Shown in pieces: positions 7,381 to 64,000 of a DNA stretch of 64,000 nt. Numbering within the stretch: position 1 is the first letter of the stretch; each line of letters begins with the position of its first letter. The position numbers were made by a program, and so were the translations under genes. A model generated the notes under the pieces. The model made no database searches. It was not told the DNA's origin and saw only the letters and a program-made list of their open reading frames with translations. The stretch comes from Alphaproteobacteria bacterium (GTDB lineage Bacteria > Pseudomonadota > Alphaproteobacteria > Rs-D84), in contig JBKSMS010000011.1 in assembly GCA_046881825.1 (NCBI GenBank), positions 8,604-72,603 of the forward strand, written 5' to 3'.

Positions 7381-7407
7381 AACAACCGCCCAAAATGGGC
7401 GGTTGTT
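7381..7407. terminator. Bidirectional intrinsic terminator
   Basis: AACAACCGCCC-AAAAT-GGGCGGTTGTT. The hydrolase stop codon lies at the stem edge. Confidence 0.65.
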
Positions 7408-8488
7408 AATTTATTTGCGCGTCAACCATTGGGCGGGTTTTAACAGTATCCAGTGGATGCTTTTGATACATAACATTTGAAAAATCTATGTTGTTTAAAT
7501 CAAACTTTCGAATAATCGGATTATACATTGTTGTATAATAAATTTTGTTATTCGTCATATCTGTCACAGATGTCCATTGTGTAGCCGACGGTATGTTCGG
7601 AATTTTTGTTTTATCACTATATTGAATACCAATTGGAATTGTCATCGCTTCCAAAATTGTAAAAGCTTGTGTGACTGCCCCTTCTGCCGTAGCCGACACA
7701 GGTGCGGTTGTTTGATAAAATGCAGCTCTTACAAATCTTGATGGTGGTGTCACATCACCAGGTAATCCCAACATGCCAGAACCATGCCCGATTGGTGACA
7801 AATTTATATCACCAAATTCATGCGCATCAATACTGCCCGCCTGTAAATTGATATAGTTGTTCAAATTGGTTATATGCCAGTCATATCGCGGTGAATTAGT
7901 CAAAACACCTAATTTGTTTTCGTTTACTGTTGCGATACCATCTATGTATTCTATGACTATCTGACGCCCAAATTTATCAGCCACACGCCAATGCAAATTT
8001 TCCGCACGTGAATCTGTCGCAACTACGCGCACACCCGGCAACGCAGAAATTACATCTTCGACATTTTCAAAAGAACCCAGTATCCACGCAACAAATTCAG
8101 TATCTGAAATCGTCACATCTTTTTGTTCTGGATCATATTTTGGGTAAGAGCCCACTTTTGGAAAATAAAACAGACCCGCAGACAAACCTGCTTCGTTCAA
8201 TCCTTCGATAACATAATCTTCGGATGCCAAACCAACATAGCCATAAAACGCAGTATATTTCATTCCACCACGTGTGCCATCTGGCAACATAGATTGCTTT
8301 TCAAAACCTTCGGGAACTATTAAATAATCACTTGGGCTTTCGCCATTTGCCCATTCAATAGTTCGTGCAACTATGTTTGCCCCATCTTTGGATGTTAATG
8401 AAATTCCTGTACAAGAATCAGCTTGGTTGATAACACCAACAGTCGCCAATGTCATCATAAAATAAAGATTTAATTTTTTCGTTTTCAT
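7406..8488 (-). CDS. Secreted choloylglycine hydrolase family Ntn-hydrolase (bile-salt hydrolase / penicillin V acylase-like)
   Basis: Signal peptide followed by the nucleophile Cys (NQADSCTGISLTSKDG). Family-like blocks RTIEW, NEAGLS, LTNSP. Start at MKTKKL. Confidence 0.85.
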   Translation of the reverse strand: MKTKKLNLYFMMTLATVGVINQADSCTGISLTSKDGANIVARTIEWANGESPSDYLIVPEGFEKQSMLPDGTRGGMKYTAFYGYVGLASEDYVIEGLNEAGLSAGLFYFPKVGSYPKYDPEQKDVTISDTEFVAWILGSFENVEDVISALPGVRVVATDSRAENLHWRVADKFGRQIVIEYIDGIATVNENKLGVLTNSPRYDWHITNLNNYINLQAGSIDAHEFGDINLSPIGHGSGMLGLPGDVTPPSRFVRAAFYQTTAPVSATAEGAVTQAFTILEAMTIPIGIQYSDKTKIPNIPSATQWTSVTDMTNNKIYYTTMYNPIIRKFDLNNIDFSNVMYQKHPLDTVKTRPMVDAQIN

Positions 8489-8536
8489 GTTTTTATTTTG
8501 CCATAAAAACAATATGAAAAACATAAGAACCTATTC

Positions 8537-11500: not shown

Positions 11501-12174
11501 GCCATCAAATAATTAAACACATCCGCATTTCCAGATATCGTGTTATTTGACATGTAATCAAAATCTAGCATACCTTCCCATGTTGGATATTCCGAAGAAC
11601 AATTTGTCCCGGTACATGCCCCCGGTCCCACAGGCAAATTTTGTGTAAATAATTTCGATGCTTCAGTTGAAGTTCCGCCACTATTTTCATTATTATTTGG
11701 TCTGTCACCATTTGTCCCAGATGAATGATGTCCGTTATCGTCATCAAAAATATTAGCCAACAACACAACGCCACCAACGACAGCCGCCACCCCAACCGCA
11801 GACAAAACAATTACATGCGTTGAAGAAAGCCCACTAAAAAAACCATATTCATTACCTTTTTTTGCGACACGCGTTCTTTGTTGATATTGCTTTATTTGCT
11901 TATCACAATCAGAAGCATCAGCACCATACATTTGTAAAACCTGAATCGCGCGTTTATCATTATTCATAACCGCAGTACAAACCAAAGATAATCCAGTTGA
12001 ATCGACATAATTCACATCAACCCCAGAATTGATTAAAACTTGGACAGTTTGGACATCACCGCGTCGTGCAGCGACCAATAATTTTGAAGCATCTTGAAAT
12101 TCACCAGCCACGGCAACAGATAACACACATGGTATCGCCAAGCAGAAAAATCCCAAAAATCTAATGAATTTCAT
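8566..12174 (-). CDS. Large outer-membrane autotransporter-like protein with N-terminal ankyrin repeats
   Basis: Signal peptide, then ankyrin repeats (LLVAARRGDVQTVQVLINSGVDVNYVDSTGLSLVCTAVMNNDKRAIQVLQMYGADA). A hydrophobic helix follows (VIVLSAVGVAAVVGGVVLLANIF), then a roughly 750-aa passenger and a C-terminal region of alternating beta strands (about 280 aa). Confidence 0.8.
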   Translation of the reverse strand: MKFIRFLGFFCLAIPCVLSVAVAGEFQDASKLLVAARRGDVQTVQVLINSGVDVNYVDSTGLSLVCTAVMNNDKRAIQVLQMYGADASDCDKQIKQYQQRTRVAKKGNEYGFFSGLSSTHVIVLSAVGVAAVVGGVVLLANIFDDDNGHHSSGTNGDRPNNNENSGGTSTEASKLFTQNLPVGPGACTGTNCSSEYPTWEGMLDFDYMSNNTISGNADVFNYLMASHAYDAFARGYLGMETIRLASDLSPFNLASLPYVSVPGGGNPKNVAMITGNGVNATGSAIDGTIRWVDADQISTVQSICAQNGSESEACQNALIAATKTSHKYHNLDNGTEDAAFDLSGSGTVFGLATTAESKLAKIIAGWQAGERATPDFYGFIPNGQLTVYKTGAGTSWVDPSAPASGTYNIAGETLAVGDTFNLFGGTLTVTSVNGNAFVATLGDDTYHGYLVGDKLFIDSNADGNTNQMYLFEGTNLNLSKELSTSPADYKNYTAIYNAVYNPLMNVLDMSNVIVNLSLPSAATGLGYATVDDAKIGYAINNTHFLKLIDDYYNLNTADDTDTNVLMPSTAANLAFTNLGKYANQILVNPAGRSILTGGTLSPKDATFENFAPVAYNNLQNLFMTVVAVRPADGTKDDGIGDYSAENAGTLELSTWADPNDSSTIYSSRVCGLTGNGNDGAMNPWCFSAPGATDLEATAAMAGSVALVKSAFDYMTPKEIFLLLALTADGPYLGTNPETNSRWEKTADLITYLRKNYTLPIDSPDAQYLEKFKTVFGYGMINLERATRPGTNIYFYSSDKNTIVSGNNKAYWGDGTSNSTNPRASSVLSLTGKGAIKTAFYDVLQSADGEISLPRIWNMNFVSDTDSKHGLYMGDVLADFAVDSANRRTNQIGNFTFGMALSPRAYNDNLNGLDNLRIAFNNEKYDIDAEYQRFLTDGESRFSGRANGVLSLVSNSVASGAKYKIGNFAFGTRAFSGTITDENLLENDPAISSQFEPARLGFANGVAIDTGYKTDKFAFNVAVGNLHETNTVLGMYSDGILTMRGGDTQYIDAVVAYKPFERVKLTMRGTFADTRVDTIGGIISDVSDIKSNAFAIGADVGGFNFTAAMPLATVSGKMGYDYAEYSVVENDGNFEVAVNNPHVEYIDLAKQKRELRFSSSYKTPLGKWTDAGVGFIYRVNPNNTDAFGNESLFMFKLHHRLGI

Positions 12175-12307: not shown

Positions 12308-13165
12308 ATGAAGTATCGCTTGTTATTTTTGACAGTAAATTTACTGTTCGCGCCAACATTGGTTTTTGGTGCCTGTTCTATTTCTAATTTAACAAAATGT
12401 TTAGATTCTGTTTGCGCGATAAATGTTGGTGCTAATCCTGCAGCACGATGTCAATATTGCGGTTCTGCTTCTGCGGGGACACCATCGAAATCAACCACAA
12501 TGAAAAGTATATCTGTCGGGGTGTCTTCAAAATACAATGTATCAGACAAAGAATTAAAAAGCGCACCAACAGACCCGGGTGAAAGATATGCCTGGGGGAC
12601 AAGATTATGCATTGAAAAAGTTTCGGGATGCAGTGCGGACGATGTCACAAACAATTACGATAAATTGATTGAACAATCGTGTAAGGCTGCGGGTATATCT
12701 GCTGAAATGGTAAATCTGGCAAAGAAAGCAAATGTGCAAAAAACGCAAACAACTTGTGCCACAGAAATAGAATCTTGCATGGTTGATGAAAAACATTGTT
12801 CTGCGAATTATAAAAATTGTAAAAGCGATTCAGATTTTGATAAATATTTTTCACAGTGTTCTGTTACATCAACTGGTTGCGAATCGTATTTGACTAACAT
12901 TCGTAAAACATTGATTGGCTTTCGTGCTAATTCTTATGCGAACGCTGAAAAGTTGTTAAAAAACATTGTCAACGCATATCAAAGTGACCGCAACCAAAGA
13001 TTAACAACAACCCAGGCGAATTGCAAAAACAACAAAGCGACAAAAGATTGCATCACCCGCATTTGCAACAACAACATGCGGAATAAATGTAGTGATAAAA
13101 ATGAACAAGCTGCGGCAGAATCATTGTGTAAATTTTACGATACTGCGTGCGAACGGTTAAAATAA
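12308..13165 (+). CDS. Secreted Cys-rich family protein (member 1)
   Basis: Signal peptide. N-terminal C-x7-C-L-x3-C-x11-C-x2-C motif (CSISNLTKCLDSVCAINVGANPAARCQYC), plus CSANYKNC and many further Cys pairs. Confidence 0.8.
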   Translation: MKYRLLFLTVNLLFAPTLVFGACSISNLTKCLDSVCAINVGANPAARCQYCGSASAGTPSKSTTMKSISVGVSSKYNVSDKELKSAPTDPGERYAWGTRLCIEKVSGCSADDVTNNYDKLIEQSCKAAGISAEMVNLAKKANVQKTQTTCATEIESCMVDEKHCSANYKNCKSDSDFDKYFSQCSVTSTGCESYLTNIRKTLIGFRANSYANAEKLLKNIVNAYQSDRNQRLTTTQANCKNNKATKDCITRICNNNMRNKCSDKNEQAAAESLCKFYDTACERLK

Positions 13166-13166
13166 A

Positions 13167-14516
13167 ATGGGCAAAGGGCAAATGAAAAAGAACAAAAGAT
13201 TTTTTTCAAAATTCATGACCGCGGCAGCAGTGTTTGCTTCTTTGTTCATGGTCTGTGATTTGGCAAATGCTGCGACACGCAGGTCTGGCCGTTCTGTCCC
13301 CGCTGCGCGTAAAAATATAACCGCAACTAAAACAGTCGCAACAACTCAACCGGTTGAACAAAATTCAGAACCAGAAACAATTGTTGAAACAGTTGAAGAA
13401 CCGGTCGTTACTGTCGCGAAAGAAATTCCAGAACAAATTATAATGAATAAATCGAATCAGTTTGAAAATACGATTTCTGACATTATGGAATCTGCCGCCC
13501 CAGATAATTCTTTTGCCGAAGAAATTCGTCGTCAGCGCGCGGCTTTGGCAGCCAGTGAATCTGAATCAACAGCAACGGGCAACCAACAACGCGCCCTTGC
13601 AACGAACAGTCACACTTGCGATGTTGGACTTCGTAAATGTATGTCTGAAATATGTGGCAAAGATTTTACAAAATGTGCCACCGATGGTGATACTGCGTTT
13701 GGCGATAAATTAGACAGGTGCCGTCGCAATACAGAATGCAGCGCAGAAGAATTTTCTTTGTTCACAACGGAAATCAAGGCTGACCGTGATGTTAATGTAA
13801 AGCTGTCGTCATATAATTCGGTTGTTGAATGTGGAAACAGTTATAATGCATGTATCATGAATGAATGTGGAACAATGTATAATAAATGCCTGGGCAAGAC
13901 GGCTGAAAATGCGGCGATTCAAAAATGTTCAACTGTTGCCAAAGAATGCAACGAAGCGGATTCTGGTTTAACATCGCGTTTTGGAACGGCAATTGGCAAA
14001 TTACGCGAAAATGCTGAAAAAGATATCAAAAAAGACGAACAACGTCTTTACGCACTGCGCGATTTGATGGAAAAGCAATGTAAATCATTGGGCGCGGCAT
14101 TTGACGAACGGTCTTTTGATTGCGTTTATACTGTGAATTTTTATGCGGGTGAAAACCAAAGCGCACCATTGGCTTCGCGCAAGGCTTATGCCGGCGATTC
14201 GTTTGTATGCATGCAAGAATGGTTTGGCGTGAACACAACAACGGCGCAAGAAAACGCGTATCGTGAAACACGCGCACAGACGGCGGCAAGTTCTGCTATG
14301 TTGGGTTCTGGTCTGGGAATGGCGGCGGGCGCAATATCATCTGGTGCAATTGACCGCGCCATCGATTTAAAGAAAAAATGCAAAGAACTAGAAGCAGAAT
14401 GGGAAGCAACACAAATGTCTACATGCAATGGCTCGTATTATGCTTGTGCCAAATTTTGGAAAGAAAAAAGTGAAAAACTGGACAAATTAGAAAAGGAAAT
14501 GGCTGAATGCAAATAA
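13167..14516 (+). CDS. Secreted Cys-rich family protein (member 2)
   Basis: Starts 1 nt after the previous stop. Hydrophobic N-terminus. Motifs CDVGLRKCMSEICGKDFTKC, CGNSYNAC, CGTMYNKC and the Gly-zipper-like MLGSGLGMAAGAISSGAI. Confidence 0.8.
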   Translation: MGKGQMKKNKRFFSKFMTAAAVFASLFMVCDLANAATRRSGRSVPAARKNITATKTVATTQPVEQNSEPETIVETVEEPVVTVAKEIPEQIIMNKSNQFENTISDIMESAAPDNSFAEEIRRQRAALAASESESTATGNQQRALATNSHTCDVGLRKCMSEICGKDFTKCATDGDTAFGDKLDRCRRNTECSAEEFSLFTTEIKADRDVNVKLSSYNSVVECGNSYNACIMNECGTMYNKCLGKTAENAAIQKCSTVAKECNEADSGLTSRFGTAIGKLRENAEKDIKKDEQRLYALRDLMEKQCKSLGAAFDERSFDCVYTVNFYAGENQSAPLASRKAYAGDSFVCMQEWFGVNTTTAQENAYRETRAQTAASSAMLGSGLGMAAGAISSGAIDRAIDLKKKCKELEAEWEATQMSTCNGSYYACAKFWKEKSEKLDKLEKEMAECK

Positions 14517-14562
14517 AAAAACAGCTTAAAAGAATAGAAATAAGTAATTAGGTTCAAATAAA

Positions 14563-15738
14563 ATGAAAACCATGTTGAAAATCTTTACAGTCCTATTTTT
14601 GACATTAAATATAATGCCGTCGATTGCTAATGATGAAAAACAGGCTTACGATAGTGCAAAGGCAACCGAACAATCAAAGGCTAATCGACTTTTGACTGCG
14701 GCGTCTTCTGTGGCAACGGGGATTGGCGGTAAGGAATTGGCACAAGGGTTGGCCGAACAAAAGGCCGACCGCGTGGCAGAACAAAGCATGTCCGCATATA
14801 TCGCAACAATGCGCTGTTCATACGGCAACGGCAAACAAGTCAAAGCCGGCACAGAAGAAATCGAATTACCCGGCGGTAATGATGGCAACATTATGAAATA
14901 CAGGGCTGAATATGTGACACTCGCTGCTGATTTAAAAGAACGCAAAACCGCGCTTGGGCTTAAACCTGGAATTGAAAGCGAAGAAATTTTGGATAAATCG
15001 CAAATGGGGCTTTACGATGACGAAAATATCGGTATAAGTGACGGCGCATACGCATCGCTTTACCGCGCACAAATGTTAGGTTCAGAAAAAGACCAACAAC
15101 AAATTGATGACGCAAAACAAACATCTAAAAATCGTGTGATTGGTGGCGCGGTCGCCGCAGGTGTTGGTATCGTTGGTGGTATTATCGGCGATGAATTAAT
15201 CAACCAATCATTATCTTCATCGACCAAAACAGCACAGACCTGCACTGAATCTGGCGGAACCTGGCAAGGTGGCAGATGCCATTGTCCAGATGGATTTATA
15301 CAGCACACAAAAACCGGTCCATGTTTTGAAGAAAAACCAACAGAAGTTCAAACAACGACCAACCAACAAACATCCGTCGAGCCAGGAAACTCTACCCCCC
15401 CCCAGAGACAGAATAATAATTCGTCAAATTCTAATAGCGGCAGTGACAATAGTTATGACAATGGTGATGATAATAGCATGAACAATGGAAATAATGGTGG
15501 CAATGGTGAGGATGATAATAGTTTTGTTAGCGATGAAATTAAACTTAACGAAAAAGAAGCTGACCCTCATCCAATTGAGAACGGTGCTGCCGAAGAAATA
15601 TCACAAAACCCAGAAAAAGCTGGACAACAAATTGTAGCTGTTGCACCTGAAGGTGAAAACAGCAATTCCAACAACCAACAAAGACAAGTGACAACGCGCC
15701 AACAACAAAAAAGCACCCCGTCTCGGGCGAGGAATTAG
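14563..15738 (+). CDS. Secreted glycine-zipper protein with an N/Q/S-rich tail (member 3 of the operon)
   Basis: Signal peptide, VIGGAVAAGVGIVGGIIGDELI, an EGF-like Cys knot CTESGGTWQGGRCHCPDGF...C, then a low-complexity tail rich in N, S, G and D. Confidence 0.75.
   Translation: MKTMLKIFTVLFLTLNIMPSIANDEKQAYDSAKATEQSKANRLLTAASSVATGIGGKELAQGLAEQKADRVAEQSMSAYIATMRCSYGNGKQVKAGTEEIELPGGNDGNIMKYRAEYVTLAADLKERKTALGLKPGIESEEILDKSQMGLYDDENIGISDGAYASLYRAQMLGSEKDQQQIDDAKQTSKNRVIGGAVAAGVGIVGGIIGDELINQSLSSSTKTAQTCTESGGTWQGGRCHCPDGFIQHTKTGPCFEEKPTEVQTTTNQQTSVEPGNSTPPQRQNNNSSNSNSGSDNSYDNGDDNSMNNGNNGGNGEDDNSFVSDEIKLNEKEADPHPIENGAAEEISQNPEKAGQQIVAVAPEGENSNSNNQQRQVTTRQQQKSTPSRARN
15395..15403 (+). repeat. 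C9 homopolymer inside the CDS
   Basis: tct acc ccc ccc cag encodes STPPQ. It is the longest G/C homopolymer I found in this AT-rich window. Confidence 0.9.
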
Positions 15739-15775
15739 CACCATTTAAACACTTAATGTTTTTCCGGGAAACAAA

Positions 15776-15804
15776 AACAAACACCCGCGGTTGCGGGTGT
15801 TTTA
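15776..15804. terminator. Bidirectional intrinsic terminator
   Basis: ACACCCGC-GGTT-GCGGGTGT flanked by A and T runs. Confidence 0.7.
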
Positions 15805-15823
15805 ATTTGAATCACAAAAACCT

Positions 15824-16465
15824 TTATTCTGCTTTGGCTTTCTTTGCATCAGGTTTCTTTTCTGCCTTTTCATCGGCTTTTTCTTCATCGCGGCTCTGTT
15901 CCACAGAAACGGCTTCTTCTTTTTCCTCATCGTGGCCCTGCTCTGCTGGGACGGATTCTTCAACTTTCTTTGTTCCAAAAGTCAATTTTTTACCAGCAAC
16001 CAAAGCATCAATTTCATCTTGAGATTGTGCAACATAAATTTTTACATCAACAACAACATCTGGATGCAAAGCAATTTTTGTATCAAACACACCCACAGAT
16101 TTAATTGGTGACCCCAACATAACCTGAGCCGATTCAACATCAACACCTGCAATCACTTTCAATTCACGTGCGATATCGCGTGAAGACACAGAACCATATA
16201 ATTGACCTGTATCCCCAGCCTGACGAATCATGTGTAATTTAGCATTTTTAACTGCATCCACCTTAGATTCAGCGGTCTTTTTCGCATTTTCATGACGCGC
16301 GACAATTTCTGCCTTTTTCGCTTCGAAAAGCGCAACATTTTCGCGTGTATAACGCATTGCTTTGTTATTTGGCAACAAATAGTTGCGTGCAAAACCTGTT
16401 TTCACTTCGACTGTATCGCCGATATTTCCCAATTTAGTAATTTTTTCTGTTAAAATAACTTTCAT
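15824..16465 (-). CDS. rplI: 50S ribosomal protein L9 with a long acidic/Lys-rich C-terminal extension
   Basis: MKVILTEKITKLGNIGDTVEVKTGFARNYLLP is the canonical L9 N-terminus. There is about 60 aa of extra E/K-rich tail. Confidence 0.95.
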   Translation of the reverse strand: MKVILTEKITKLGNIGDTVEVKTGFARNYLLPNNKAMRYTRENVALFEAKKAEIVARHENAKKTAESKVDAVKNAKLHMIRQAGDTGQLYGSVSSRDIARELKVIAGVDVESAQVMLGSPIKSVGVFDTKIALHPDVVVDVKIYVAQSQDEIDALVAGKKLTFGTKKVEESVPAEQGHDEEKEEAVSVEQSRDEEKADEKAEKKPDAKKAKAE

Positions 16466-19665: not shown

Positions 19666-20622
19666 ATGAGACGTTCTGTCATGGCTTTTTGTGGTGTGTT
19701 GTCTGCTGTCCATGTAGCATATGGTGGGTTGGTCGCAACAAAATTCCCAGGAACCATACAAGATTTATCTTTTGAAAGTCGTATGGAAAACATAGCTGAT
19801 GGATATAAACCTTTTTTGGATAAAAAGGCGTACCAAGAATTAAACATTGTTCCAGGAGAAGAAATTTATACCGACCATATGATTGCGGTTGACGAAGCAA
19901 ACATTGAACCCCAAGTTCAAGATGCACCAACCGTCCCACCATCACAACCAATCCCCACACCACCAGCAGCAATGTATTATTCAGGTCAAACCATTGGCGG
20001 TGGCGCAGTTATTGAAAATAATTCAATTACAGGTGGCTCTTGTTATCCGGCTGACCACGACAATCATTTTGTAAACAAAATTTTAACCACAGGCAGATAC
20101 GAATCTGTTCATCCTGCTTTGGAAAAAGGTTTGATAACAATATTTCGCAAAGAAGGTGGGTGTGGAACAATCAAAAACGATCCTTGTGGGTATACTTGTT
20201 ATGGGATTGGTTCTTCTCCAAAATGCACAGGTATCGTTGTTCATTCACGTGCAGAAGCAGAAGATGTTTATTACAACAGATATTGGAAAAAATACCATCT
20301 GGACAAATTGCCAGATGTAATCAGCACAGATATCTTTTTGGCAGGCATGGCAAGCGGTCCATCAACAGCATTATCACAATTTCGTGAATTTTTAGGGTTA
20401 CCACAAAGGCCTTCTGTTGTTGATGATAATGTGATTAACGCAGTAAAAAATTACAAAGGCGATATACACAATAATTGGCTTGATAAACGCGATGCTTTTT
20501 TACAAAAAGTTGCGCAACAACGTTACGGTGGTTCTGTAAGTCGCGGTTATAAAAACGCCATTGAAATAAAAAGAAAAAACGGATGCCACGTTCGTCCACA
20601 AAATCCGCTTTACCGTCAATAA
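19666..20622 (+). CDS. GH108-like peptidoglycan hydrolase (lysozyme-like), secreted
   Basis: Hydrophobic N-terminus and a Pro-rich linker. GH108-type core IFRKEGGCGTIKNDPCGYTCYGIG...AEDVYYNRYWKKYHLDKLPDVISTDIFLAGMASG, with extra Cys. Confidence 0.7.
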   Translation: MRRSVMAFCGVLSAVHVAYGGLVATKFPGTIQDLSFESRMENIADGYKPFLDKKAYQELNIVPGEEIYTDHMIAVDEANIEPQVQDAPTVPPSQPIPTPPAAMYYSGQTIGGGAVIENNSITGGSCYPADHDNHFVNKILTTGRYESVHPALEKGLITIFRKEGGCGTIKNDPCGYTCYGIGSSPKCTGIVVHSRAEAEDVYYNRYWKKYHLDKLPDVISTDIFLAGMASGPSTALSQFREFLGLPQRPSVVDDNVINAVKNYKGDIHNNWLDKRDAFLQKVAQQRYGGSVSRGYKNAIEIKRKNGCHVRPQNPLYRQ

Positions 20623-20680: not shown

Positions 20681-21640
20681 ATGGGAAAAAGATTGTCGTT
20701 TTTTTTAGTGTCTATGATTTTTGCATCAACTGCATTCGCGGCAAACAATTTTATTCCAAAGAAATTTACCACAGTCACTTCACATAATGATGTCTATCCC
20801 TATCGGCTGAATAACACGAAACCAAGCAACACCAATAAAAAAAATATTTCAACAAATACCATCGGGACCATATCTGCTTCACCGATTGGGAAACGCGGTG
20901 TTATCAAAAGACAAACTAATGCACGCGCTGCAACAACGGGCAATCAAAATTATTCAAACGATAATCGGCGCATTGTTCCGCGCAACAACAAAACGACTGC
21001 GCGTGTAGCGGCAAACACAAATTCTAATCCGCGTGTATATGACGGACGCAGTGTCCAGACAGTTTCGGCGCGTCAAACACCAGTTGCGAATCGTAATTCA
21101 AACACAGTGCGCACGGCATCATCTGGCTCTGTAACGAACGAACGCGTGTCGTCTCAACGTTGTTTTGCCGATTACAAAGAATGTATGGAAATGTATTGCC
21201 AGCGCGAAGATACAGCTTATAATCGCTGTTATTGCAGTGCTAAATTGTCCCAAATAGATTCGAAATATCAAAAGAAAATTGATGATTTAATTCAACAGAT
21301 AATAAAATTGCAATACAATAATCCCGACGCCACCAGTGAAGAAATCAAGGAATATTGGGATCAAACCATTGGTGTTTATACACACACAAATCCATGGGTA
21401 GATATTGAAAACGCTTTGAACATAGAATGGCCTGATTCACAAAGCCGTATTCGTGGTCAACAGGCATTTAATACTGGTCATGACTATTGTGTTCGCAATT
21501 TACGCGCATGCTATTATATGGCATCAAACATGCGCGATGCATACAAATCAGAAATTGCGCGCGATTGCGAAGCTTATGAAAAAACCTTACAAAAAATACA
21601 AAATGCTGCCGAAAGCGTGGTTGAAAGTTATAAAAATTAA
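20681..21640 (+). CDS. Secreted Cys-rich family protein (member 4)
   Basis: Signal peptide and an N/R/T-rich low-complexity region. The family signature follows: CFADYKECMEMYCQREDTAYNRCYCS, then a coiled coil. Confidence 0.8.
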   Translation: MGKRLSFFLVSMIFASTAFAANNFIPKKFTTVTSHNDVYPYRLNNTKPSNTNKKNISTNTIGTISASPIGKRGVIKRQTNARAATTGNQNYSNDNRRIVPRNNKTTARVAANTNSNPRVYDGRSVQTVSARQTPVANRNSNTVRTASSGSVTNERVSSQRCFADYKECMEMYCQREDTAYNRCYCSAKLSQIDSKYQKKIDDLIQQIIKLQYNNPDATSEEIKEYWDQTIGVYTHTNPWVDIENALNIEWPDSQSRIRGQQAFNTGHDYCVRNLRACYYMASNMRDAYKSEIARDCEAYEKTLQKIQNAAESVVESYKN

Positions 21641-39962: not shown

Positions 39963-42374
39963 TTAGAAATTATATCTGAATTTCAACATACCTGTTTGTG
40001 ATGTATAATCTTTGCGGACATCAATATCATAGTTGATAGAGAAATCCAAAGTCTTATATTTCAATCCCAAACCGATACCGAATTCGCCCCCAAGACGGGA
40101 CAATCTTTCACCACGCAGTGTATAAGAATCTACACCTGGCATTGTAACGGTAGATATATTTCTGTCGGACAACATATCATATTTAACCGCCGCATTTAAT
40201 TGTGGGATTAATTTTGTATATCTGTCCATATTGATACCGAACGCATATTTCGCACCAAAGACACCTGTCAAGAAATCAGTATCTTTAGATTTTGTTTTAA
40301 CATCCATTGAATTAGTATAATCGTCAGCCATCACATGCATATAACGCAACCCTAATTCAGGCGTTACACCACTTGCGAAATCGTAACCAGTCGCGATTAC
40401 ACCACCGAACGAATTGACATCATAATCGCCAGTCACAGGTGTTCCCATTACTACAGCTTCTTCTGAAAAATCAGACATAGTGTAATTTAACACAGCATTG
40501 ACATACCATTGTGTTGGTTTGTATTGACCATAAACAAATATGGTATTGCTGTCGATTTCTGTATCGCGTTCTGTCCCGCTGATATCGGAATGAGCATACG
40601 AATACCCTGCCCCGATGGTCCAAACTTTATTGATTGTTCCATCCATACCAGCCGCGATTCCACGTGTATAACCACTGAACGCATCGTTCTGTTTAGATTT
40701 ATTGAACAAACCTTGCGCCCAAACGCCACCACCGGTTAATCTGACATCACCACCATTACGACCAATTCTTGGTGCGACCATACGCATACGCGCACCAGTC
40801 AAATTAGCAACTGTTGTTTGAACAGATGCAGCGATAGATTGTGCGACAGATTCTTTTTCTGGATGAACTGCCGCTGCTGCTTTTTCAACTTCCTGTTTAG
40901 CTTCGGCTGTGTCTTCTGCCAACTTTTCTTGCATCTTGACAGCCAAATCGTTCAGCTTTTCTGATGTAGACTGTGCAACCCCAGCAATTGCCGCCGCTGT
41001 ATCTTCTTGGATACCATTTTCTTCTGCGATATCAGAAGAAGATTTCAAAACCGCTGTTACTGTACCATTTTCTTCAGTCAAAGTGTATACAGCATTCTCT
41101 TTATTCCATGTAAAATCACTTGTCACAGTATTCGCGCTTACAACATTATATGTTCCAGCGCCACGGACCGTCATATTCAAAGTAGCACCATTTGCATCCA
41201 AAGTATCGACATCAATTTGACTGTATGCATCTGCGCTTGCCAATGTCATATTCAAAGTATCATTTGCTGTCAATACCAAAGCGCCAGCAGTCAACTTTGC
41301 ATTTTCATCCATATTGATTGTTTGGAATTCTTTGACAGTTCCGACAACATTTACATCAACATTGTTGATGTTTAATTCAGTTGCACCACCAACATGATAC
41401 GCACGAACATCACCGCCAATGTTGATATTACCACCACCCAACATATTTAATGTGGCATTACCGATAACACTGTTTTCATCGGTATCTGGCGCCGATGCTC
41501 TTTGACGACTGCCAGCATGAACATCGCCAGCAATTCTAATTGTTCCAGATGTATTCAAATTAACTTCTGTGCTAGCAACTGTTGCACCAGTTCTGTTTGC
41601 GCCCGCGATAATCCAACCACCATCTGTTAATGCAGACGTAGGTGTGTCAGAATCTGCCGCTGTATAACCAATAACAGAATTTCCTGTCACATTTATAACA
41701 ACGTTCCCAGCAGATGCAGCAGAACCAGCAGAAACAACTTCATCTTTAATCAAAGAATTATTAATATTTATTTCTAAATCACCAATTTTAGCATTTGGAA
41801 CATTCGTAGCAGAAGAAAAATAGTTTGTTCCACGAACACTTAAACCAACAACCGAATTATCAACAGTAACCGTTGTTTTCCCAGACAATGCCCCATCTGT
41901 TGTTATATCGCTATGATCACTAAAAAAGTTAACTCCTATTACATTATTTTGCACATTAGAATCAATAACGGTAACATTTATATCACCATTCACATATGCT
42001 TGGGCTTCTTCTTCTGCTGCTGTTTGTGTACGCCCGATGTATTTTTCTACATTAACACTTTTACTTCCACCACTGTTGCCAATAAATAAAACACCATGTA
42101 TACCATCACTCAATCCATCAGAAGCGAAAGCTTCCTGGGTCACATTTTTTACCGTTAAATTTACATCACCATTAACAATGTTACGCATTGCAGTACCAGT
42201 GATAACATTATACGTTCCGCCATCTACAACAAAATTAATATCATTGTTAATAGTTGTATATGAATCTATCTCTGGATGTTTCCAATTATTTGTATCAACT
42301 GCCATCGCGGGCATGATTGCCAATGCCGGCAAAACAGAAACCCCCATTAAAAAACCATGGAAATATTTATTCAT
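39963..42374 (-). CDS. Autotransporter (beta-helical passenger plus C-terminal beta-barrel)
   Basis: Start MNKYFHGFLMGVSVLPALAIMPAMA behind AGGAG. Repetitive N/V/G-rich beta-helix-like passenger. Barrel ends ...GMLKFRYNF. Confidence 0.9.
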   Translation of the reverse strand: MNKYFHGFLMGVSVLPALAIMPAMAVDTNNWKHPEIDSYTTINNDINFVVDGGTYNVITGTAMRNIVNGDVNLTVKNVTQEAFASDGLSDGIHGVLFIGNSGGSKSVNVEKYIGRTQTAAEEEAQAYVNGDINVTVIDSNVQNNVIGVNFFSDHSDITTDGALSGKTTVTVDNSVVGLSVRGTNYFSSATNVPNAKIGDLEININNSLIKDEVVSAGSAASAGNVVINVTGNSVIGYTAADSDTPTSALTDGGWIIAGANRTGATVASTEVNLNTSGTIRIAGDVHAGSRQRASAPDTDENSVIGNATLNMLGGGNINIGGDVRAYHVGGATELNINNVDVNVVGTVKEFQTINMDENAKLTAGALVLTANDTLNMTLASADAYSQIDVDTLDANGATLNMTVRGAGTYNVVSANTVTSDFTWNKENAVYTLTEENGTVTAVLKSSSDIAEENGIQEDTAAAIAGVAQSTSEKLNDLAVKMQEKLAEDTAEAKQEVEKAAAAVHPEKESVAQSIAASVQTTVANLTGARMRMVAPRIGRNGGDVRLTGGGVWAQGLFNKSKQNDAFSGYTRGIAAGMDGTINKVWTIGAGYSYAHSDISGTERDTEIDSNTIFVYGQYKPTQWYVNAVLNYTMSDFSEEAVVMGTPVTGDYDVNSFGGVIATGYDFASGVTPELGLRYMHVMADDYTNSMDVKTKSKDTDFLTGVFGAKYAFGINMDRYTKLIPQLNAAVKYDMLSDRNISTVTMPGVDSYTLRGERLSRLGGEFGIGLGLKYKTLDFSINYDIDVRKDYTSQTGMLKFRYNF

Positions 42375-42511
42375 GATAATTCTCCTTTCTTTTATCATAC
42401 AAACTCAGTATATCATATTATATCAAATTGTCAAGTCCCGTTTTTGCAAAAAAATACCGTAAAATCAACAAGTTATCATTCAAAAAAGTCAAAAAAAATG
42501 CTCGTTCTGTC

Positions 42512-53683: not shown

Positions 53684-54406
53684 ATGGCAAAAGATTTAGA
53701 AAATACAATGGTTGGTAACAATGTTTACATTCTGACAGAAATAACTAACGAAACAACCAACGGTTTGCTTATACAATTGACACAATGGGTGGACAAGTTA
53801 CCACTAAAAAACAATTTGATTGTACCACAAAAGCCAGACGAAAAAGACATAACAGACGATACTGTTTATATTATTGGCAAAGCCAATTCATACAAATCAT
53901 ATACACCATATGAAGCTGTTCCAAACAATATCCCTGTATTAAATGTTTGGATTAATTCTGGCGGTGGCAAAACCAACATTACAAAATCTGTTTTATCTGT
54001 GTTTAACATGGCATCAGCCAAAGGCACAATCATTAAAACATACAATCTAGCAAGCGCCAGCAGCTCTGCTAGTATGATCGCGATATCTGGAACTCCGGGA
54101 TACAGATATATGGCTGAAAACGCATATAACTATATCCATTTTGGACGCTATTCTGCTGATGCTGCACACACAGATGAAATAGACATTTTAACAAATGACT
54201 TAAAAATATTTGATAAAACCACGCGACTTGTGTATTTAAACAACACTAAATTAACAAACAAAGAATTAACAAGATATTACAATACCGAAGGCGCTGGCCG
54301 ACTTTATGCAGACCAATGTTTACAAAAAGGTTTATGTGATTGGGTTATAACAAACGATGGACGATTTGTAAATAATGTAAATGAATTAAAATCAAAACAA
54401 AGATAA
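53684..54406 (+). CDS. Divergent ClpP/crotonase-fold serine-protease-like protein
   Basis: Aligns by eye to ClpP blocks: VWINSGGG (INSPGG), ASSSASMIAISG (GQAASMG, Ser retained), YNYIHFG (MIHQP, His retained). It has an insertion of about 40 aa, and the third triad position looks substituted. Confidence 0.6.
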   Translation: MAKDLENTMVGNNVYILTEITNETTNGLLIQLTQWVDKLPLKNNLIVPQKPDEKDITDDTVYIIGKANSYKSYTPYEAVPNNIPVLNVWINSGGGKTNITKSVLSVFNMASAKGTIIKTYNLASASSSASMIAISGTPGYRYMAENAYNYIHFGRYSADAAHTDEIDILTNDLKIFDKTTRLVYLNNTKLTNKELTRYYNTEGAGRLYADQCLQKGLCDWVITNDGRFVNNVNELKSKQR

Positions 54407-59106: not shown

Positions 59107-59418
59107 TTAACAATTCAGATAATCATACATATCCACCCAATCTGGATTGTCTTTTTCTATTAATTCTATTTTTCTTTTGCGCGACCAAGATTTAATTTGT
59201 TTTTCACGCATTATTGCATATTCTGGATTTTCAAATACTTCTATACGAACTAATTTTTCAACATTGTATCGTGCGGTAAAACCGCCACTGTTCGCGTGGG
59301 TTTTATGCTCAAACGAACGACGCGCTATATCATTAGTCACACCGGTATATAATGCTCCATTTTTACCAGATGCCATTATATAAACATAGTATTTATATGG
59401 TTCATGATAGTATTTCAT
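59107..59418 (-). CDS. GIY-YIG nuclease-superfamily protein (UPF0213-like)
   Basis: YVYIMASGKNGALYTGVTNDIARRSFEHK (GIY...YTG) and a conserved downstream E. Confidence 0.85.
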   Translation of the reverse strand: MKYYHEPYKYYVYIMASGKNGALYTGVTNDIARRSFEHKTHANSGGFTARYNVEKLVRIEVFENPEYAIMREKQIKSWSRKRKIELIEKDNPDWVDMYDYLNC

Positions 59419-59460: not shown

Positions 59461-59491
59461 AAAAAAACCGCCCAAACGGGCGGTGTTTTTT
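59461..59491. terminator. Bidirectional intrinsic terminator
   Basis: A7-CCGCCC-AAAC-GGGCGG-TGTTTTTTT. Confidence 0.7.
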
Positions 59492-61950
59492 TACATTTGT
59501 ATATCTTCACAAGATTCTTGGACATCCGTTGTACAATTTTTCTTTTTGACTTTTGTCCCTTTGGCCACCAATTTTTCACAATTTTCAACACTAGTTGTTG
59601 TGCAAACATGACATATTCTGGTATCACGATTAAACACAGATGTTACTTCTTTAGTTCCATCAGTTACAAGGATTTTAGCTTTTGATCCTTCTGTATTTAT
59701 GCTGTTTCCAAGTCCTGTTCTGCTTCTTCCCCCGCTTGTAAGGGCATTCAAATCTAATCCTGTACCAACATCATAAGAAATGGCATAAGGAGTATTGAGA
59801 GGAGTTTGAGCATTATCAAGACCTGCGCCCCCCCCAGTTGGTAAAATCTGACACATATACTGTGCAACATCAACAGATGCAGATTCTGTTGCTTCTGCAA
59901 TCGCTTTTTCTAATTTCTTTTGGTAATTATCCTGTGCTTTGCGCAATGCAGACATCGCAATCGCCACACGATATTGATTCAACAAATTTGGAAAACGTGC
60001 CACTGTTGAATTTCTGTTGTTACCGCTACCATTAATTTGAGATAAATCACGACCGTTTATACAATATTGAACTTGTTGATCAGATTCAATCAAAGAAATG
60101 GTTCTGTTTATCGTCCCCGCTATATTGTTTAATTCCGATTCGATGTTGGATATTATGCTGTCCGCATTTGGAACAGATTTATTATGTTTCTTGACTTCTT
60201 TGACATAATCAGCAACACCAATTTCACCAGGCTTTAAAACTTTGCCACCATCTTTGACGGTCCCCATTGCATCACCGACCTTTATTTCCCCAAATGAAAT
60301 CATCCCGGTCACACGATAAACAGAACCGTCTTTTTGTGATTTCAAAGAATTTGTTCCCATATATTCATCTGCAGCAAAAGTATTACAATCTGTTGTTGAA
60401 CCACAGAATTCTGTCATTTTTTCTTCTGCTAACTTTACGCAATTATCCAATGCTTTGTTATCTATATTCAAATACAACCCCATCAACATTTCATCCAAAT
60501 CAGACATTTTGAAATTCGGGTTAGTCTGTTTACAAACAACCAATTTATCAACTGGACACATATCATGTATGTAATTGAAATCCATACCGATACAGTTCAT
60601 AAAATCTGGACCGCATCTATCTTCGGACGTAAAGCATTCTTTGACTTCTGCTGTGCACGCATCTACGCGCATAGCAGCCAATTTTGCAACCACATAATCC
60701 CAAATTTGTGGTTCCATACGTTCACATGGGTCAATTTGAATTTTACAAAACGAACGCGCCATATCTGGTCTTGATAAACACGCATCCATTGTCGCTGTTC
60801 CCTTGCCCACAATATCATCTTTACATGCTTTTTGAATACAATCTGAAATATCAGTCAAACAAGATTGACGTTTTTGTGATTCTATATTTTGTTCTGCCAA
60901 TCTGATTGTTGGTGCCGCTTCACGCAGGAAATCTGCCCATACATATTGACGCACAGCGACACACTTATCCAATACGCGTTCACAAATGAAACGTTTAGAT
61001 TCCAAAATTTCCATTGTTGACGCGGTTATATCATAAACATTTGTTGTATCAACTTTTGTCCCGGCAACACTGCTTGATTCATTATTCTGCATATTTTCAG
61101 ATGCGATAGTGAACACACAATTTTCCCAATTTGAACCACAGGCATCTTCACTTTTCATACACTTTTTATATTCAACCATACAAGTTCCGCGGTCATATTG
61201 ATTTGATTCTTCCAAAGAATCTTTCAATGCGCCACGCACCGCAGCACGCGCCTGATTCAATACCGCATCTGCTTCTGCTTTTTTTTGAGCAATACTGTTT
61301 GCCAACCCTTTGCAGTCCGAAACAATCTGACGAGAATACATTTGTGTTAACATCGTCATATCTTTTGAACAAGACGCTGGCATTTGCTTTTTACACAAAT
61401 CATTTGCAGAGTTATATAAATCACGTCCTACTTTGTCAGACAAATCTATATCTTCCCAATCGTCTTCTTCATCTTCTTCGCCATCACCGAACAACCAAGA
61501 CAAAGCATTAGTATTTATTGCTTCTTTCTTGGTTTCACCTGCCTTTACGACAGATCCATCAGCATTATAAATTCTTTCGCCACCATTAAAGATTATATCA
61601 GCATTCGCACCCGCTTGAATTTTTTCAACTTCTTCGGTACTGATACGTTCTGCTTCGGCCAAAGTTTTTTTAATAGCTTCTAATTGTTCATCGTATCTGG
61701 CGGCATCATCACTGCACATACAAGTTCCACCATTTTCATTATCAGCAATACAGAAAGCATCCATACATCCAAAATATTTATCATAACAATCTTGGTCATA
61801 TATACCAGTTGCTTCGACCTTAGCACGCACAGTTGTTCCCGCACGCAACGCAGACTGTTTTTTTGTTTTTGTCGCAGACCACGCATCAGTTGCACCGATA
61901 ACAACCGTCAACAACCCAAAAAACAAACCGACATTTAATATTTTTTTCAT
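59491..61950 (-). CDS. Giant secreted Cys-rich family protein (member 6, 819 aa, 36 Cys)
   Basis: Signal peptide MKKILNVGLFFGLLTVVIGATDAWS. CYDKYFGCMDAFCIADNENGGTCMCSD, CGSNWENC, CGPDFMNC, and the C-terminal ...CHVC...ESCEDIQM. Confidence 0.85.
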   Translation of the reverse strand: MKKILNVGLFFGLLTVVIGATDAWSATKTKKQSALRAGTTVRAKVEATGIYDQDCYDKYFGCMDAFCIADNENGGTCMCSDDAARYDEQLEAIKKTLAEAERISTEEVEKIQAGANADIIFNGGERIYNADGSVVKAGETKKEAINTNALSWLFGDGEEDEEDDWEDIDLSDKVGRDLYNSANDLCKKQMPASCSKDMTMLTQMYSRQIVSDCKGLANSIAQKKAEADAVLNQARAAVRGALKDSLEESNQYDRGTCMVEYKKCMKSEDACGSNWENCVFTIASENMQNNESSSVAGTKVDTTNVYDITASTMEILESKRFICERVLDKCVAVRQYVWADFLREAAPTIRLAEQNIESQKRQSCLTDISDCIQKACKDDIVGKGTATMDACLSRPDMARSFCKIQIDPCERMEPQIWDYVVAKLAAMRVDACTAEVKECFTSEDRCGPDFMNCIGMDFNYIHDMCPVDKLVVCKQTNPNFKMSDLDEMLMGLYLNIDNKALDNCVKLAEEKMTEFCGSTTDCNTFAADEYMGTNSLKSQKDGSVYRVTGMISFGEIKVGDAMGTVKDGGKVLKPGEIGVADYVKEVKKHNKSVPNADSIISNIESELNNIAGTINRTISLIESDQQVQYCINGRDLSQINGSGNNRNSTVARFPNLLNQYRVAIAMSALRKAQDNYQKKLEKAIAEATESASVDVAQYMCQILPTGGGAGLDNAQTPLNTPYAISYDVGTGLDLNALTSGGRSRTGLGNSINTEGSKAKILVTDGTKEVTSVFNRDTRICHVCTTTSVENCEKLVAKGTKVKKKNCTTDVQESCEDIQM
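59828..59835 (-). repeat. G8 homopolymer (coding strand) inside the CDS
   Basis: ccaactggggggggcgcaggt encodes PTGGGAG. The tract lies about 110 codons before the stop. Confidence 0.9.
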
Positions 61951-61966
61951 TTGCCTTCTCCACAGA

Positions 61967-64000
61967 TTACATATTTATATCTTCGCAAGATTCAATTTCT
62001 TGACAGAATTCTTGTTTACCGCCACTAAGTCCACCCCACACACCGGCACCAACTGCACCAATAATGCCACCAATCGCAGTTCCCCAACCTGCATTTATCA
62101 TAGTTCCCGCAGATGCCCCTCCAGATAAACCACCAGCCCCAGCTTTTAACGCAGCCGTTGCTTTTGATTCACCGCCTTCTTCACAAACCTGTTGCATACG
62201 GCAAACACGGCAATTACGCAAAGACGGTTCAAACGCAACACTTTTTATATACATATAATTGCTTTTTGATTTGCCGGGGGCTTCAACCTTGTATGTTGTT
62301 AAACAATTCTGTTTTGCAGTTTCCAAATCTTCGGTGCGACTAAGTTCTGCGATTTTCGATTCCATTTCGCGCAGATTGCGATTTTCCGCAGACATTTTTG
62401 CCAACATTTTTGCAGAATTAAACACATTTGTTCCCAACGCGTTTTTATCTTTGACTTTTTTATCCGCACTGGCATTTGTTTGTGAATCAGCACACGCTAC
62501 AACCGTTTTGTCTTTTTCAAATTGCACAAAGAATTCATCCACAGATTTATCCGAATCAGTAATAACCTTTGCGCGCAACGCATCCATTTCAGCATCTGTC
62601 TTTGGAGCCTTTGTAAACGCAGTCGCAGAAGCCACAACCGGCAAACAAGCCATATCAGTTCCGCAAACTTTGCTTAATTGTTCACCAAAATAATTCACAC
62701 AACCCGTCAGCATTTGATAATCCATTTGCAAAAGTGCTGATTGAACTATTATGTTATATTGCGTTGCCCCTTTGCATGATGGGAACATATCTTGCGGGCA
62801 AAGCGCAACGATTTCATACGGCTTTTTCCCGACACATTCAGCCTTTGTAAAATCAACACCACATTTGTCTTGCAAACATTTATCAACATCATTTTCACAG
62901 AATTTAGTTTTCAAATATCCCAATTTATCATTGACCACAGATTGCAAGCCTGGAATTTTTGCATCACATTCTGTGATAATAGGACAAATTCCTGCTGCAA
63001 CATTAACATCATTTAAACATTCTGATTTCGTAGCTGTAGAACAACTTTCTTCTAAACAGTTTTGAATTTTTGCTAAACAAGTTGCACGATAATTTTTATC
63101 GGCATATTTGTTTGCTTCTGCCAAAACATTTTTAGATTCAGCCGCCCAATCTTTTTCCACATCTTTGCGCACAGCCATACATTGATCCAAAATATTTTCA
63201 CATGCATTTGAACGACGTTTTAATAAATTTGCATCCAGACAGTTTTCAAAATTCGTTCCGCAACCGCCCTTGTCCGCAATACAAGAACGATAAGCCAACA
63301 AACATTCACCACGATTGTATTTGTTTGTTGTTGATAACATTTCAAGACGCGCCTTGCGCACAGCTGATTCAGCGATTCGTTTATTTGATTCAGCATTAGC
63401 CTTTTGTTCTTTTAAATACGAATCGTAATTTTTACAATCTTGGATAATCATACGCGAATAAAGCATAGATTCCATTTCCGCAGAATCTCCGCAAGCATTT
63501 AATTTTACCTGGCAATATTTCGAAGCCATTTTGTATAAATCATCGCCCAAAGTAACATCTTCACCAATATCTTCTTCGTCTTCGAATTCTTCTTCGTCAC
63601 CAACCAACCAAGTTAAAAAATTAATGCTAGAAATTTTTTTATTGCCAACATTTTCTTCGAACACCAATCTTGCCTTAGCCCCCAATTGTTCACGTTCGAC
63701 ACCTTCGGTATATAATTTATCTGCTTCTTCTTGGATAGCCAGCACAGCATTTATTTTATCTTTGGCAGAATTTATATTATCAGAACAAGCACAACGTTCG
63801 CCCTGACTTTCATCCAGCAAACAAAATTCATCCATACATTGACGATACGCATCACGGCAGTTTTGCGGTGTTTCTGATGATGTTGTTTCTGGTTCTTCCG
63901 CAACATCCACAGATTCTGTCTGTGTCTGAACGGTTTCATTATTTGTTTGCACCGTATTAGATGTAGTCGTCACAGTTGTATTTTTATTCGCAGGCACCGA
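61967..64000 (-). CDS. Giant secreted Cys-rich family protein (member 7; 5' end beyond the window)
   Basis: Collinear paralog of 59491-61950. CRDAYRQCMDEFCLLDESQGERCACSD, CGTNFENC, CGVDFTKAEC, a Gly zipper GWGTAIGGIIGAVGAGVWGGLSGG, and the ending ESCEDINM. The ORF is open to the window end. Confidence 0.85.
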   Translation of the reverse strand, partial: SVPANKNTTVTTTSNTVQTNNETVQTQTESVDVAEEPETTSSETPQNCRDAYRQCMDEFCLLDESQGERCACSDNINSAKDKINAVLAIQEEADKLYTEGVEREQLGAKARLVFEENVGNKKISSINFLTWLVGDEEEFEDEEDIGEDVTLGDDLYKMASKYCQVKLNACGDSAEMESMLYSRMIIQDCKNYDSYLKEQKANAESNKRIAESAVRKARLEMLSTTNKYNRGECLLAYRSCIADKGGCGTNFENCLDANLLKRRSNACENILDQCMAVRKDVEKDWAAESKNVLAEANKYADKNYRATCLAKIQNCLEESCSTATKSECLNDVNVAAGICPIITECDAKIPGLQSVVNDKLGYLKTKFCENDVDKCLQDKCGVDFTKAECVGKKPYEIVALCPQDMFPSCKGATQYNIIVQSALLQMDYQMLTGCVNYFGEQLSKVCGTDMACLPVVASATAFTKAPKTDAEMDALRAKVITDSDKSVDEFFVQFEKDKTVVACADSQTNASADKKVKDKNALGTNVFNSAKMLAKMSAENRNLREMESKIAELSRTEDLETAKQNCLTTYKVEAPGKSKSNYMYIKSVAFEPSLRNCRVCRMQQVCEEGGESKATAALKAGAGGLSGGASAGTMINAGWGTAIGGIIGAVGAGVWGGLSGGKQEFCQEIESCEDINM

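Follow-up and report, generated by a model that had tools for sequence, protein, structure and literature searches.

Disulfide-stapled helix pairs and cysteine-rich envelope proteins are known from several systems. The Helicobacter Hcp proteins (Sel1-like), from a host-associated Gram-negative bacterium, are Sec-exported, paralog-expanded and consist of repeats of an antiparallel helix pair, with a disulfide stapling each pair. In the twin CX9C (CHCH) and twin CX3C (small Tim) proteins, two parallel disulfides between Cys at a constant helical spacing lock an antiparallel alpha-hairpin; the mitochondrial intermembrane space, where these proteins reside, is topologically equivalent to the alphaproteobacterial periplasm. 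In chlamydiae, OmcA, OmcB and MOMP are Cys-rich exported envelope proteins, and disulfide cross-linking gives rigidity. A further point of comparison is the glycine-zipper membrane anchor of the SlyB/Pcp and Rickettsia 17-kDa antigen type. Here we analyzed a 64,000-nucleotide (nt) stretch of contig JBKSMS010000011.1 (GCA_046881825.1) from an Alphaproteobacteria bacterium of the order Rs-D84, called the window below, and in it two adjacent genes, A and B, whose products resemble these systems in principle, not in family. Our comparisons show that A and B are real, co-transcribed and, by prediction, Sec-exported proteins of a previously undescribed family. Whether they assemble into a membrane-attached envelope scaffold stabilized by intramolecular disulfide ladders seems to us evenly balanced.

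The two genes lie at the end of the window, with these features (lengths in amino acids [aa]):

61967-64000, minus strand: gene B, cut by the window edge, 677 of ~733 aa visible, 36 Cys
61951-61966, minus strand: spacer between B and A, 16 nt, coding strand TCTGTGGAGAAGGCAA, with the Shine-Dalgarno-like GGAGAAGG inside
59491-61950, minus strand: gene A, 819 aa, ATG start, 36 Cys (open reading frame [ORF] listing and translation)
59467-59484, minus strand: intrinsic-terminator-like hairpin, ACCGCCCGTTTGGGCGGT then T7

The stop codon of B occupies 61967-61969, and its frame is still open at base 64000. The full-length protein P0121 (733 aa) is 99% identical to B and adds 56 N-terminal residues that fall outside the window. 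The shared strand, the 16-nt spacer with GGAGAAGG, and the hairpin with T7 after A indicate that B and A form a two-gene (bicistronic) operon, transcribed from B to A. Its end is marked by the GC-rich terminator-like hairpin, which begins 7 nt past the A stop codon. As an initial annotation of the window had proposed, A and B are adjacent, collinear minus-strand paralogs (28% identity across ~500 aa; BLASTP E=9e-54) with a ribosome-binding site in the spacer between them.

That annotation had also counted 36 Cys in each protein in an identical cluster pattern, and the translations reproduced this exactly, the Cys positions of both giving 5-2-1-4-2-6-6-3-1-1-3-2. Cys makes up 4.4-5.3% of A and B versus 1.03% of the 27 other window ORFs of at least 250 aa. 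All of the motif blocks it listed are present, but the ML...DCK block had been mis-spaced: A reads MLTQMYSRQIVSDCK and B reads MESMLYSRMIIQDCK at this block, so the true motif is I-x2-DCK rather than I-x-DCK. Its word "giant" was too strong for proteins of 733-819 aa. The clear Sec signal peptide it saw on the downstream copy was confirmed at residues 1 to ~25 of A. A Sec-type signal peptide is also predicted on the full-length B homolog P0121, and among 127 full-length family representatives, 116 begin with a hydrophobic segment typical of signal peptides. A ends in ...ESCEDIQM; in B, the tail FCQEIESCEDINM comes after a Gly-rich hydrophobic segment.

Database relatives number more than 1300 for A and more than 960 for B, all unnamed or "hypothetical." In a profile search of 1.84 billion cluster representatives, the family comprised 881 clusters at 50% identity (E<=1e-3), with 258 at E<=1e-30. 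Named sources are Alphaproteobacteria, "Rickettsiales" or Candidatus Enterousia metagenome-assembled genomes (MAGs), all gut alphaproteobacterial; to judge from these, the family is restricted to Rs-D84, an order of gut alphaproteobacteria (Candidatus Enterousia and relatives). We define it by a signal peptide, an N-terminal C-x6-C-x4-C-x9-C-x-C motif, twin-Cx6C modules and, within these hairpin modules, a CG-x-(N/D)-(F/W/Y)-x2-C loop. The family hidden Markov model (HMM) matches A, B and a shorter gene at 20681-21640. In literature searches on Enterousia, Rs-D84 and Cx6C, only genome-level descriptions turned up, and none covered this protein family.

Conservation of the Cys in orthologs, which the initial annotation had named as a check, is complete: 36 of 36 are invariant in 44 of 44 A-type and 42 of 42 B-type orthologs. 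The A-type and B-type alignments have 31 Cys columns in common, and additional Cys beyond the 36 occur only in some sequences. In an alignment of 110 sequences with 24-61% identity to A, 28 columns are invariant, nearly all of them Cys. Ratios of nonsynonymous to synonymous substitution rates (dN/dS), calculated against orthologs at 66-85% identity, are 0.10-0.22 for A and 0.12-0.20 for B, in the same range as the neighboring M23 peptidase and outer membrane protein (OMP) genes (0.07-0.24) and the BOF gene. These comparisons show that A and B are under purifying selection. The idea that they are chance ORFs or a compositional or assembly artifact could draw only on the lack of annotation, all database members being "hypothetical." It is refuted by the >1300 and >960 homologs, the 881 clusters, a dN/dS of 0.1-0.2, the invariant Cys, the ribosome-binding site, the terminator and a confident AlphaFold model, and we assign it practically no probability.

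No characterized family had been recognized in the initial annotation, which named a confident family or fold match as a refutation. We found none in Pfam, NCBIfam, PHROGs, PDB sequences or Foldseek (PDB and BFVD), although no HHpred search against Pfam or PDB profiles was made, and its proposal of a new type of protein is well supported by this absence. Pfam and NCBIfam returned weak matches only, far below the curated cut-offs (best E ~0.3; nothing meaningful in NCBIfam); the best Pfam models were DUF3110 for A (11.8 bits versus a cut-off of 20.2) and C19orf12 for B (9.8 bits, E=0.9, versus 30). The PHROGs search gave no match for the A/B family, and scans of A, B, a third paralog (C, described below) and the smaller Cys-rich ORFs with these three libraries stayed at noise level. 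A profile of 86 sequences had 0 matches at E<=10 among PDB sequences.

Structure prediction improved with a broader alignment. A first AlphaFold model, from 86 close homologs in two subfamilies, reached a predicted local distance difference test score (pLDDT) of 65 and a predicted template modeling (TM) score of 0.37, and Foldseek was uninformative. A second, from 110 diverse representatives, averaged a pLDDT of 83.1, and 457 of its residues scored 90 or higher. With this model, the best Foldseek match in PDB had E=1.0 and a query-normalized TM score of 0.07, and the best in BFVD had E=7.5e-3, probability 0.21 and a TM score of 0.09. The A/B family and its fold lie outside all libraries searched. 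The family adds a confidently modeled new fold with no PDB or BFVD match, together with a sequence rule, the twin Cx6C ladder hairpin.

Two candidate relationships were rejected. Kinship to levivirus coat proteins or secretin hairpins involved only ~80 residues of the C-terminal beta-sheet, at E=1-6. An oligomeric beta-barrel or autotransporter-like C terminus was not compatible with strands that are polar, charged and hold conserved Cys, nor was there an OMP model match: OMP and autotransporter HMMs gave no match to A or B, and the true autotransporter of the window (39963-42398) was detected at 2.6e-35. At its C terminus, the A model shows just two long polar hairpins, without a barrel domain. 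The hydrophobic-x-(M/F/Y/L) C terminus resembles a beta-signal or a PDZ ligand, which is insufficient for OMP membership.

The AlphaFold model divides A into a helical hairpin region (residues ~50-530), a mixed alpha/beta region (530-720) and long beta-hairpins (764-818). Its helices pair as H254-265 with H310-327, H331-377 with H386-412 and H416-440 with H458-474, and its C-terminal strands (766-774, 779-795 and 802-818) form two long beta-hairpins. A hairpin module is duplicated within the protein (residues 250-335 versus 426-480; hhalign 96%, E=1e-9).

We aligned 598 members to the family HMM and scored Cys loss among them, using a MAFFT alignment for 783-814. Cys 264 and 323 were lost together in 64 of 64 cases (the C paralogs), 364 and 409 in 5 of 5, 439 and 465 in 4 of 4, 376 and 391 in 32 of 34-37, 783 and 814 in 50 of 51-53, and 516 and 522 in 2 cases. 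The co-lost pairs map to helices of the AlphaFold model, and the positions keep an antiparallel register, with 257+330 = 264+323 = 587, 364+409 = 371+402 = 773, and 432+473 ~ 439+465. This pattern indicates that co-lost Cys are disulfide partners, arranged as nested ladders across antiparallel helices.

Based on paired Cys loss, antiparallel register and helix positions in the model, we propose a twin Cx6C hairpin, in which two antiparallel helices would be stapled by a nested disulfide ladder. Each hairpin would have two rungs and an inner bond closing the CG-x-(N/D)-(F/W)-x2-C loop. The predicted ladders are 257-330/264-323/271-278, 364-409/371-402/376-391 and 432-473/439-465/446-453. The N-terminal ~500 residues would then form an elongated helical region of repeated twin Cx6C hairpins, and a 783-814 disulfide would close the long C-terminal beta-hairpin. 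In all, each protein would hold ~18 disulfides. These are probably intramolecular, because the Cys are lost in pairs. The suggestion in the initial annotation that the proteins are disulfide-locked is thus well supported by the invariant Cys in orthologs and by the paired loss.

The Cys could also be read as ligands for a metal or cofactor (Fe-S, Zn or Cu) or as a thiol-redox buffer. Thirty-six invariant Cys would also be expected of a metal-binding protein, and oxidative folding may be difficult for an anaerobe with PFOR and without a respiratory chain (PMC12306168). However, the Cys are lost in pairs 15-59 residues apart, unlike metal sites with 3-4 ligands; their number is even, and His makes up 0.4% of A and 0% of B. 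A single CxxC is present, and with the dominant Cx6C spacing the Cys fall on the same face of a helix. The predicted export signals are of the Sec type and not the twin-arginine type, and no cofactor-binding family was matched. On the paired Cys loss, the near-absence of His and the Sec-type signal peptides, we rejected metal binding, which we regard as highly improbable, and prefer disulfides.

As disulfide-stapled hairpins, A and B can be set beside the described systems. They are like Hcp, by description, in their stapled helix pairs, predicted export and paralog expansion; the Sel1 (SLR) Pfam model had no match to A or B at E<=1. Their hairpins would carry a ladder of up to three long-range bonds with Cx6C spacing, whereas Hcp has one short-range bond per 36-aa repeat. 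A and B are also 3-4x larger, with an extra alpha/beta domain, a C-terminal beta-hairpin and one paralog predicted to be membrane anchored. With the twin CX9C and CX3C proteins they share the principle of the stapled antiparallel hairpin, with no evidence of homology and no match to the CHCH Pfam model. The A/B spacing is Cx6C, and a third, inner disulfide would close the CG-x-(N/D)-(F/W)-x2-C loop. The A/B modules are concatenated in 700-1000 aa, whereas CHCH proteins are single ~10-kDa domains; A and B would be exported by Sec with a cleavable signal peptide, in contrast to the Mia40-dependent import of CHCH proteins.

B differs from A at the tip of the C-terminal hairpin, where it has a 59-aa Gly-rich hydrophobic insert (...AGGLSAGASAGTMINAGWGTAIGxxVGAVGAGVLGGLSGG...) that is absent from A. 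The Gly-zipper-like C terminus that the initial annotation saw in the upstream copy was thereby confirmed, and the insert is found in 114 of 114 B-type proteins examined. Twelve sequences have 5-8 GxxxG motifs per insert, and hydropathy peaks at ~1.6 (19-residue window; 1.63 over residues 688-718). At the same site, between its last two strands, A has a Lys-rich loop of 12-16 residues.

The Cys that flank the insert are the co-varying 783-814-type pair, which would place both flanks in the oxidizing compartment. With both flanks on one side, we infer that the insert is a re-entrant (hairpin) membrane anchor, in predicted topology, and not a single transmembrane pass. The insert would dip into a membrane while its flanks stay periplasmic, and A, with its short Lys-rich loop instead, would be soluble. 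This geometry argues for a periplasmic, membrane-associated location over surface exposure. The insert is like the glycine-zipper anchors of the SlyB/Pcp and Rickettsia 17-kDa antigen type in its run of GxxxG motifs, a likeness of pattern only, as the Gly-zipper_Omp, Gly-zipper_YMGG and Rick_17kDa_Anti HMMs had no match to B at E<=1 and C19orf12 (E=0.9) was the one faint match. The insert is hydrophobic enough for a membrane and too short for two full-length transmembrane helices. Unlike those anchors, B is not a lipoprotein, and its zipper lies near the C terminus, inside a hairpin predicted to be disulfide closed.

Surface exposure is what one would expect if A and B were adhesins or contact proteins that attach a partner-dependent bacterium to a microbe, a protist or the host epithelium, with disulfides conferring resistance to gut proteases. 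Large Cys-rich exported proteins are typically extracellular, each genome has several family paralogs, and the window encodes a 1202-aa ankyrin-repeat protein and an autotransporter. The lifestyle of the lineage is also in keeping with contact: Enterousia and other Rs-D84 genomes measure ~0.75-1.0 Mb, lack the tricarboxylic acid cycle, respiratory chains and standard transporters, and predict dependence on a partner, and the authors who described them speculate on unidentified membrane proteins in cell-cell interaction (PMC12306168). A and B nevertheless have no outer membrane translocation or beta-barrel domain, no secretion system adjoins their genes, and their C-terminal strands are polar and charged, not lipid facing. 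In dN/dS and identity they resemble periplasmic housekeeping genes and do better than the neighboring OMP, and the diversification usual for exposed adhesins is not seen. The disulfide-linked Cys predicted on both anchor flanks would keep B on one side of a membrane. We therefore consider adhesins, the main alternative, unlikely and favor the envelope scaffold.

We surveyed the locus in one genome per species, for a total of 80 loci with sources that include rumen, horse, chicken, mouse and human (Hadza) MAGs. In 79 of the 80, the gene directly upstream of A is B, and the two either overlap or leave a short spacer. The third paralog, C, adjoins B in 66 of 80 and is usually divergently transcribed; it has ~770-1030 aa and 30-34 Cys, matches the family HMM (E=1e-17 to 1e-35) and matched 0 Pfam or NCBIfam families. 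Its expected position in this genome is just past base 64000 of the window. The flanking genes on the upstream side encode SLT, RNase HII, PGK, ClpP and ClpX, and those on the downstream side BOF, OMP, M23 peptidase and CtpA. No secretion system or enzyme linked to the C/B/A trio was present among them.

This conserved setting bears on whether A and B might be an exported toxin, a bacteriocin-like effector or a dispensable or mobile accessory module. They are Cys-rich, predicted to be secreted, lineage specific and expanded into paralogs, and Fic-domain and ankyrin proteins occur near some loci. Against such a role, the genes occupy one chromosomal site, with the same housekeeping genes on either side, in ~80 species-level genomes, no conserved immunity-like small gene adjoins them, and no phage or defense family was matched. 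Purifying selection is uniform along the ~800-aa proteins, and one member has a predicted membrane anchor. A toxin or mobile module is quite improbable on this evidence, and we return to the envelope scaffold.

In the scaffold reading, B, A and paralog C would assemble in the cell envelope as a membrane-attached, protease- and stress-resistant structure. Such a hetero-assembly and its structural role are conjectural; the surface or envelope structural role named in the initial annotation is plausible. The proteins would be oxidized after export by a DsbA-like enzyme, for which the window encodes a candidate:

2952-3770, minus strand: DsbA-like oxidoreductase (Thioredoxin_4 E=3e-20, DSBA E=1.6e-19, CPYC)

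This protein has an N-terminal hydrophobic segment, is membrane anchored and is encoded in a place unlinked to the B-A operon. It may be the enzyme that catalyzes disulfide formation in the exported A/B family.

Several points weigh against the scaffold. The conserved flanking genes are ordinary housekeeping genes, so the genomic context gives no functional hint. The Gly-rich segment of B falls below the threshold of every Pfam glycine-zipper model (none at E<=1). The proposed disulfide map draws on co-variation and register, not on predicted distances, and the case for a scaffold is built from sequence comparison and a predicted model. Non-consecutive disulfides normally require an isomerase; several of the proposed disulfides are non-consecutive, yet no isomerase was found. 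Neither DsbB nor VKOR was seen in the 64-kb window, and no respiratory chain is reported for the lineage (PMC12306168), which is in tension with re-oxidation of DsbA.

A bolder version of the proposal, which we offer tentatively as possible but on balance rather doubtful, is that the C/B/A trio and the smaller Cys-rich paralogs form an "exoskeleton" with a new fold, stapled by disulfides, lying in the periplasm or beneath the outer membrane and hung from a membrane by the glycine-zipper hairpin of B. If true, it would be a convergent counterpart, in a non-respiring, partner-dependent gut alphaproteobacterium, of the chlamydial Cys-rich envelope complex, and would imply an unrecognized oxidative folding route without a quinone-linked respiratory chain. 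The chlamydial OmcA/OmcB/MOMP system is a functional analogy, with several Cys-rich exported proteins in a genome-reduced, partner-dependent bacterium; neither the Pfam models Chlam_OMP6 and DUF11 nor Foldseek matched A or B. The chlamydial complex is a lattice of intermolecular disulfides, whereas the paired Cys loss in A and B points to intramolecular ones. There is also no obvious need to replace the sacculus, because MreB, RodA and enzymes of peptidoglycan metabolism are retained in Enterousia (PMC12306168); such enzymes encoded at the loci or in the window are M23, SLT and GH108.

Enterousia and its Rs-D84 relatives are uncultured and occur widely in ruminant, horse, bird, mouse and human guts. 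A genome of <1 Mb keeps at least 3 genes of ~800 aa, and shorter relatives, for this one family, and such investment and constraint suggest a core function that current annotation overlooks. The family also poses a physiological question, with a predicted ~18 disulfides per protein, several non-consecutive, in an anaerobe without respiratory chains. If the proteins form an envelope scaffold or a contact structure, they could offer handles for enriching, imaging and culturing these bacteria, such as antibodies and metaproteomic markers.

The window contains other Cys-rich genes, three of which the initial annotation had counted as further members of the family:

20681-21640, plus strand: short family member, 319 aa, 8 Cys, family HMM E=2.9e-11
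13167-14516, plus strand: probable distant relative, 449 aa, 20 Cys, signal peptide
12308-13165, plus strand: doubtful relative, 285 aa, 20 Cys, hhalign 42%, E=2.6e-4

The first is a true member. It has two matched stretches (HMM positions 22-97 and 168-235), corresponding only to the 5-Cys motif of the N terminus (C-x6-C-x4-C-x9-C-x-C) and the 3-Cys module after it. Immediately upstream lies a gene for a GH108 lysozyme-like domain protein (19666-20622, plus strand), and this arrangement puts a predicted peptidoglycan hydrolase gene next to one of the new family. The gene at 13167-14516 is only a probable distant relative of A and B: its product carries C-x6-C-x4-CG-x-DF-x2-C modules and a Gly-rich segment near the C terminus, and its alignment to the family profile spans 133 columns and keeps the Cys modules in register (hhalign 85%, E=6.3e-6). 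For 12308-13165, a relationship to A and B is doubtful. These two genes, both for Cys-rich proteins predicted to be exported, form an operon, and the 20 Cys of each are conserved in 4 orthologs. In the 391-aa product of a third co-directional gene of the 12308-15738 group (plus strand), a Gly-rich hydrophobic segment is combined with a long tail rich in N, S and Q. Homologs of the 12308-15738 genes adjoin the B-A pair in loci L079 and L044, and a functional link with B and A is suggested because the 12308-14516 homologs are next to that pair in L079.

Two terminal features recur among family members. A hydrophobic-x-(M/F/Y/L)-COOH tail is present in 67 of 129 representatives (e.g., CEDIQM, SQSIKM and TDIQF; P0241-P0390), and many have an R/G-rich stretch (PRGR, ARG) directly after the signal peptide. 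That either feature acts as a sorting, docking or PDZ-recognition signal is speculation. The gene for CtpA, a tail-specific protease, lies ~3.4 kb downstream of A.

Other genes vary around the locus. Between A and BOF lies a 103-aa GIY-YIG gene (59107-59418, minus strand; Pfam E=8.5e-15), and BOF directly follows A in the related loci L005, L007 and L012; the GIY-YIG gene looks like a lineage-specific insertion, possibly mobile or of a homing type. The PFOR and CtpA genes are separated by a second, divergent ClpP-like gene (53684-54406, plus strand; partial CLP_protease match, E=6e-12), which L009 has and some related loci (L005 and L007) lack. In L031, a 736-aa ORF with 54 Cys and a C-terminal hydrophobic segment (14077-16284, plus strand) lies ~1.6 kb downstream of A. 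It consists of tandem ~60-90-aa repeats with a recurring ...ACE(D/S)GW/Y.V..DKKSC... pattern, the A/B family HMM did not match it, and it is a separate Cys-rich family in a relative, predicted to be exported.

The window also encodes PFOR, enolase, TIM, LptB/C, OmpA-like proteins, an autotransporter and a choloylglycine hydrolase, and by annotation these remaining genes fit an Enterousia/Rs-D84 organism. Of the 1202-aa protein (8566-12174, minus strand), only an ankyrin repeat at the N terminus (Ank_4 E=4e-7) is recognizable; bacteria that interact with eukaryotic cells typically encode ankyrin proteins. The choloylglycine hydrolase family gene (7406-8524, minus strand; CBAH, E=1.6e-63) may encode a bile-salt hydrolase and fits a vertebrate-gut habitat.

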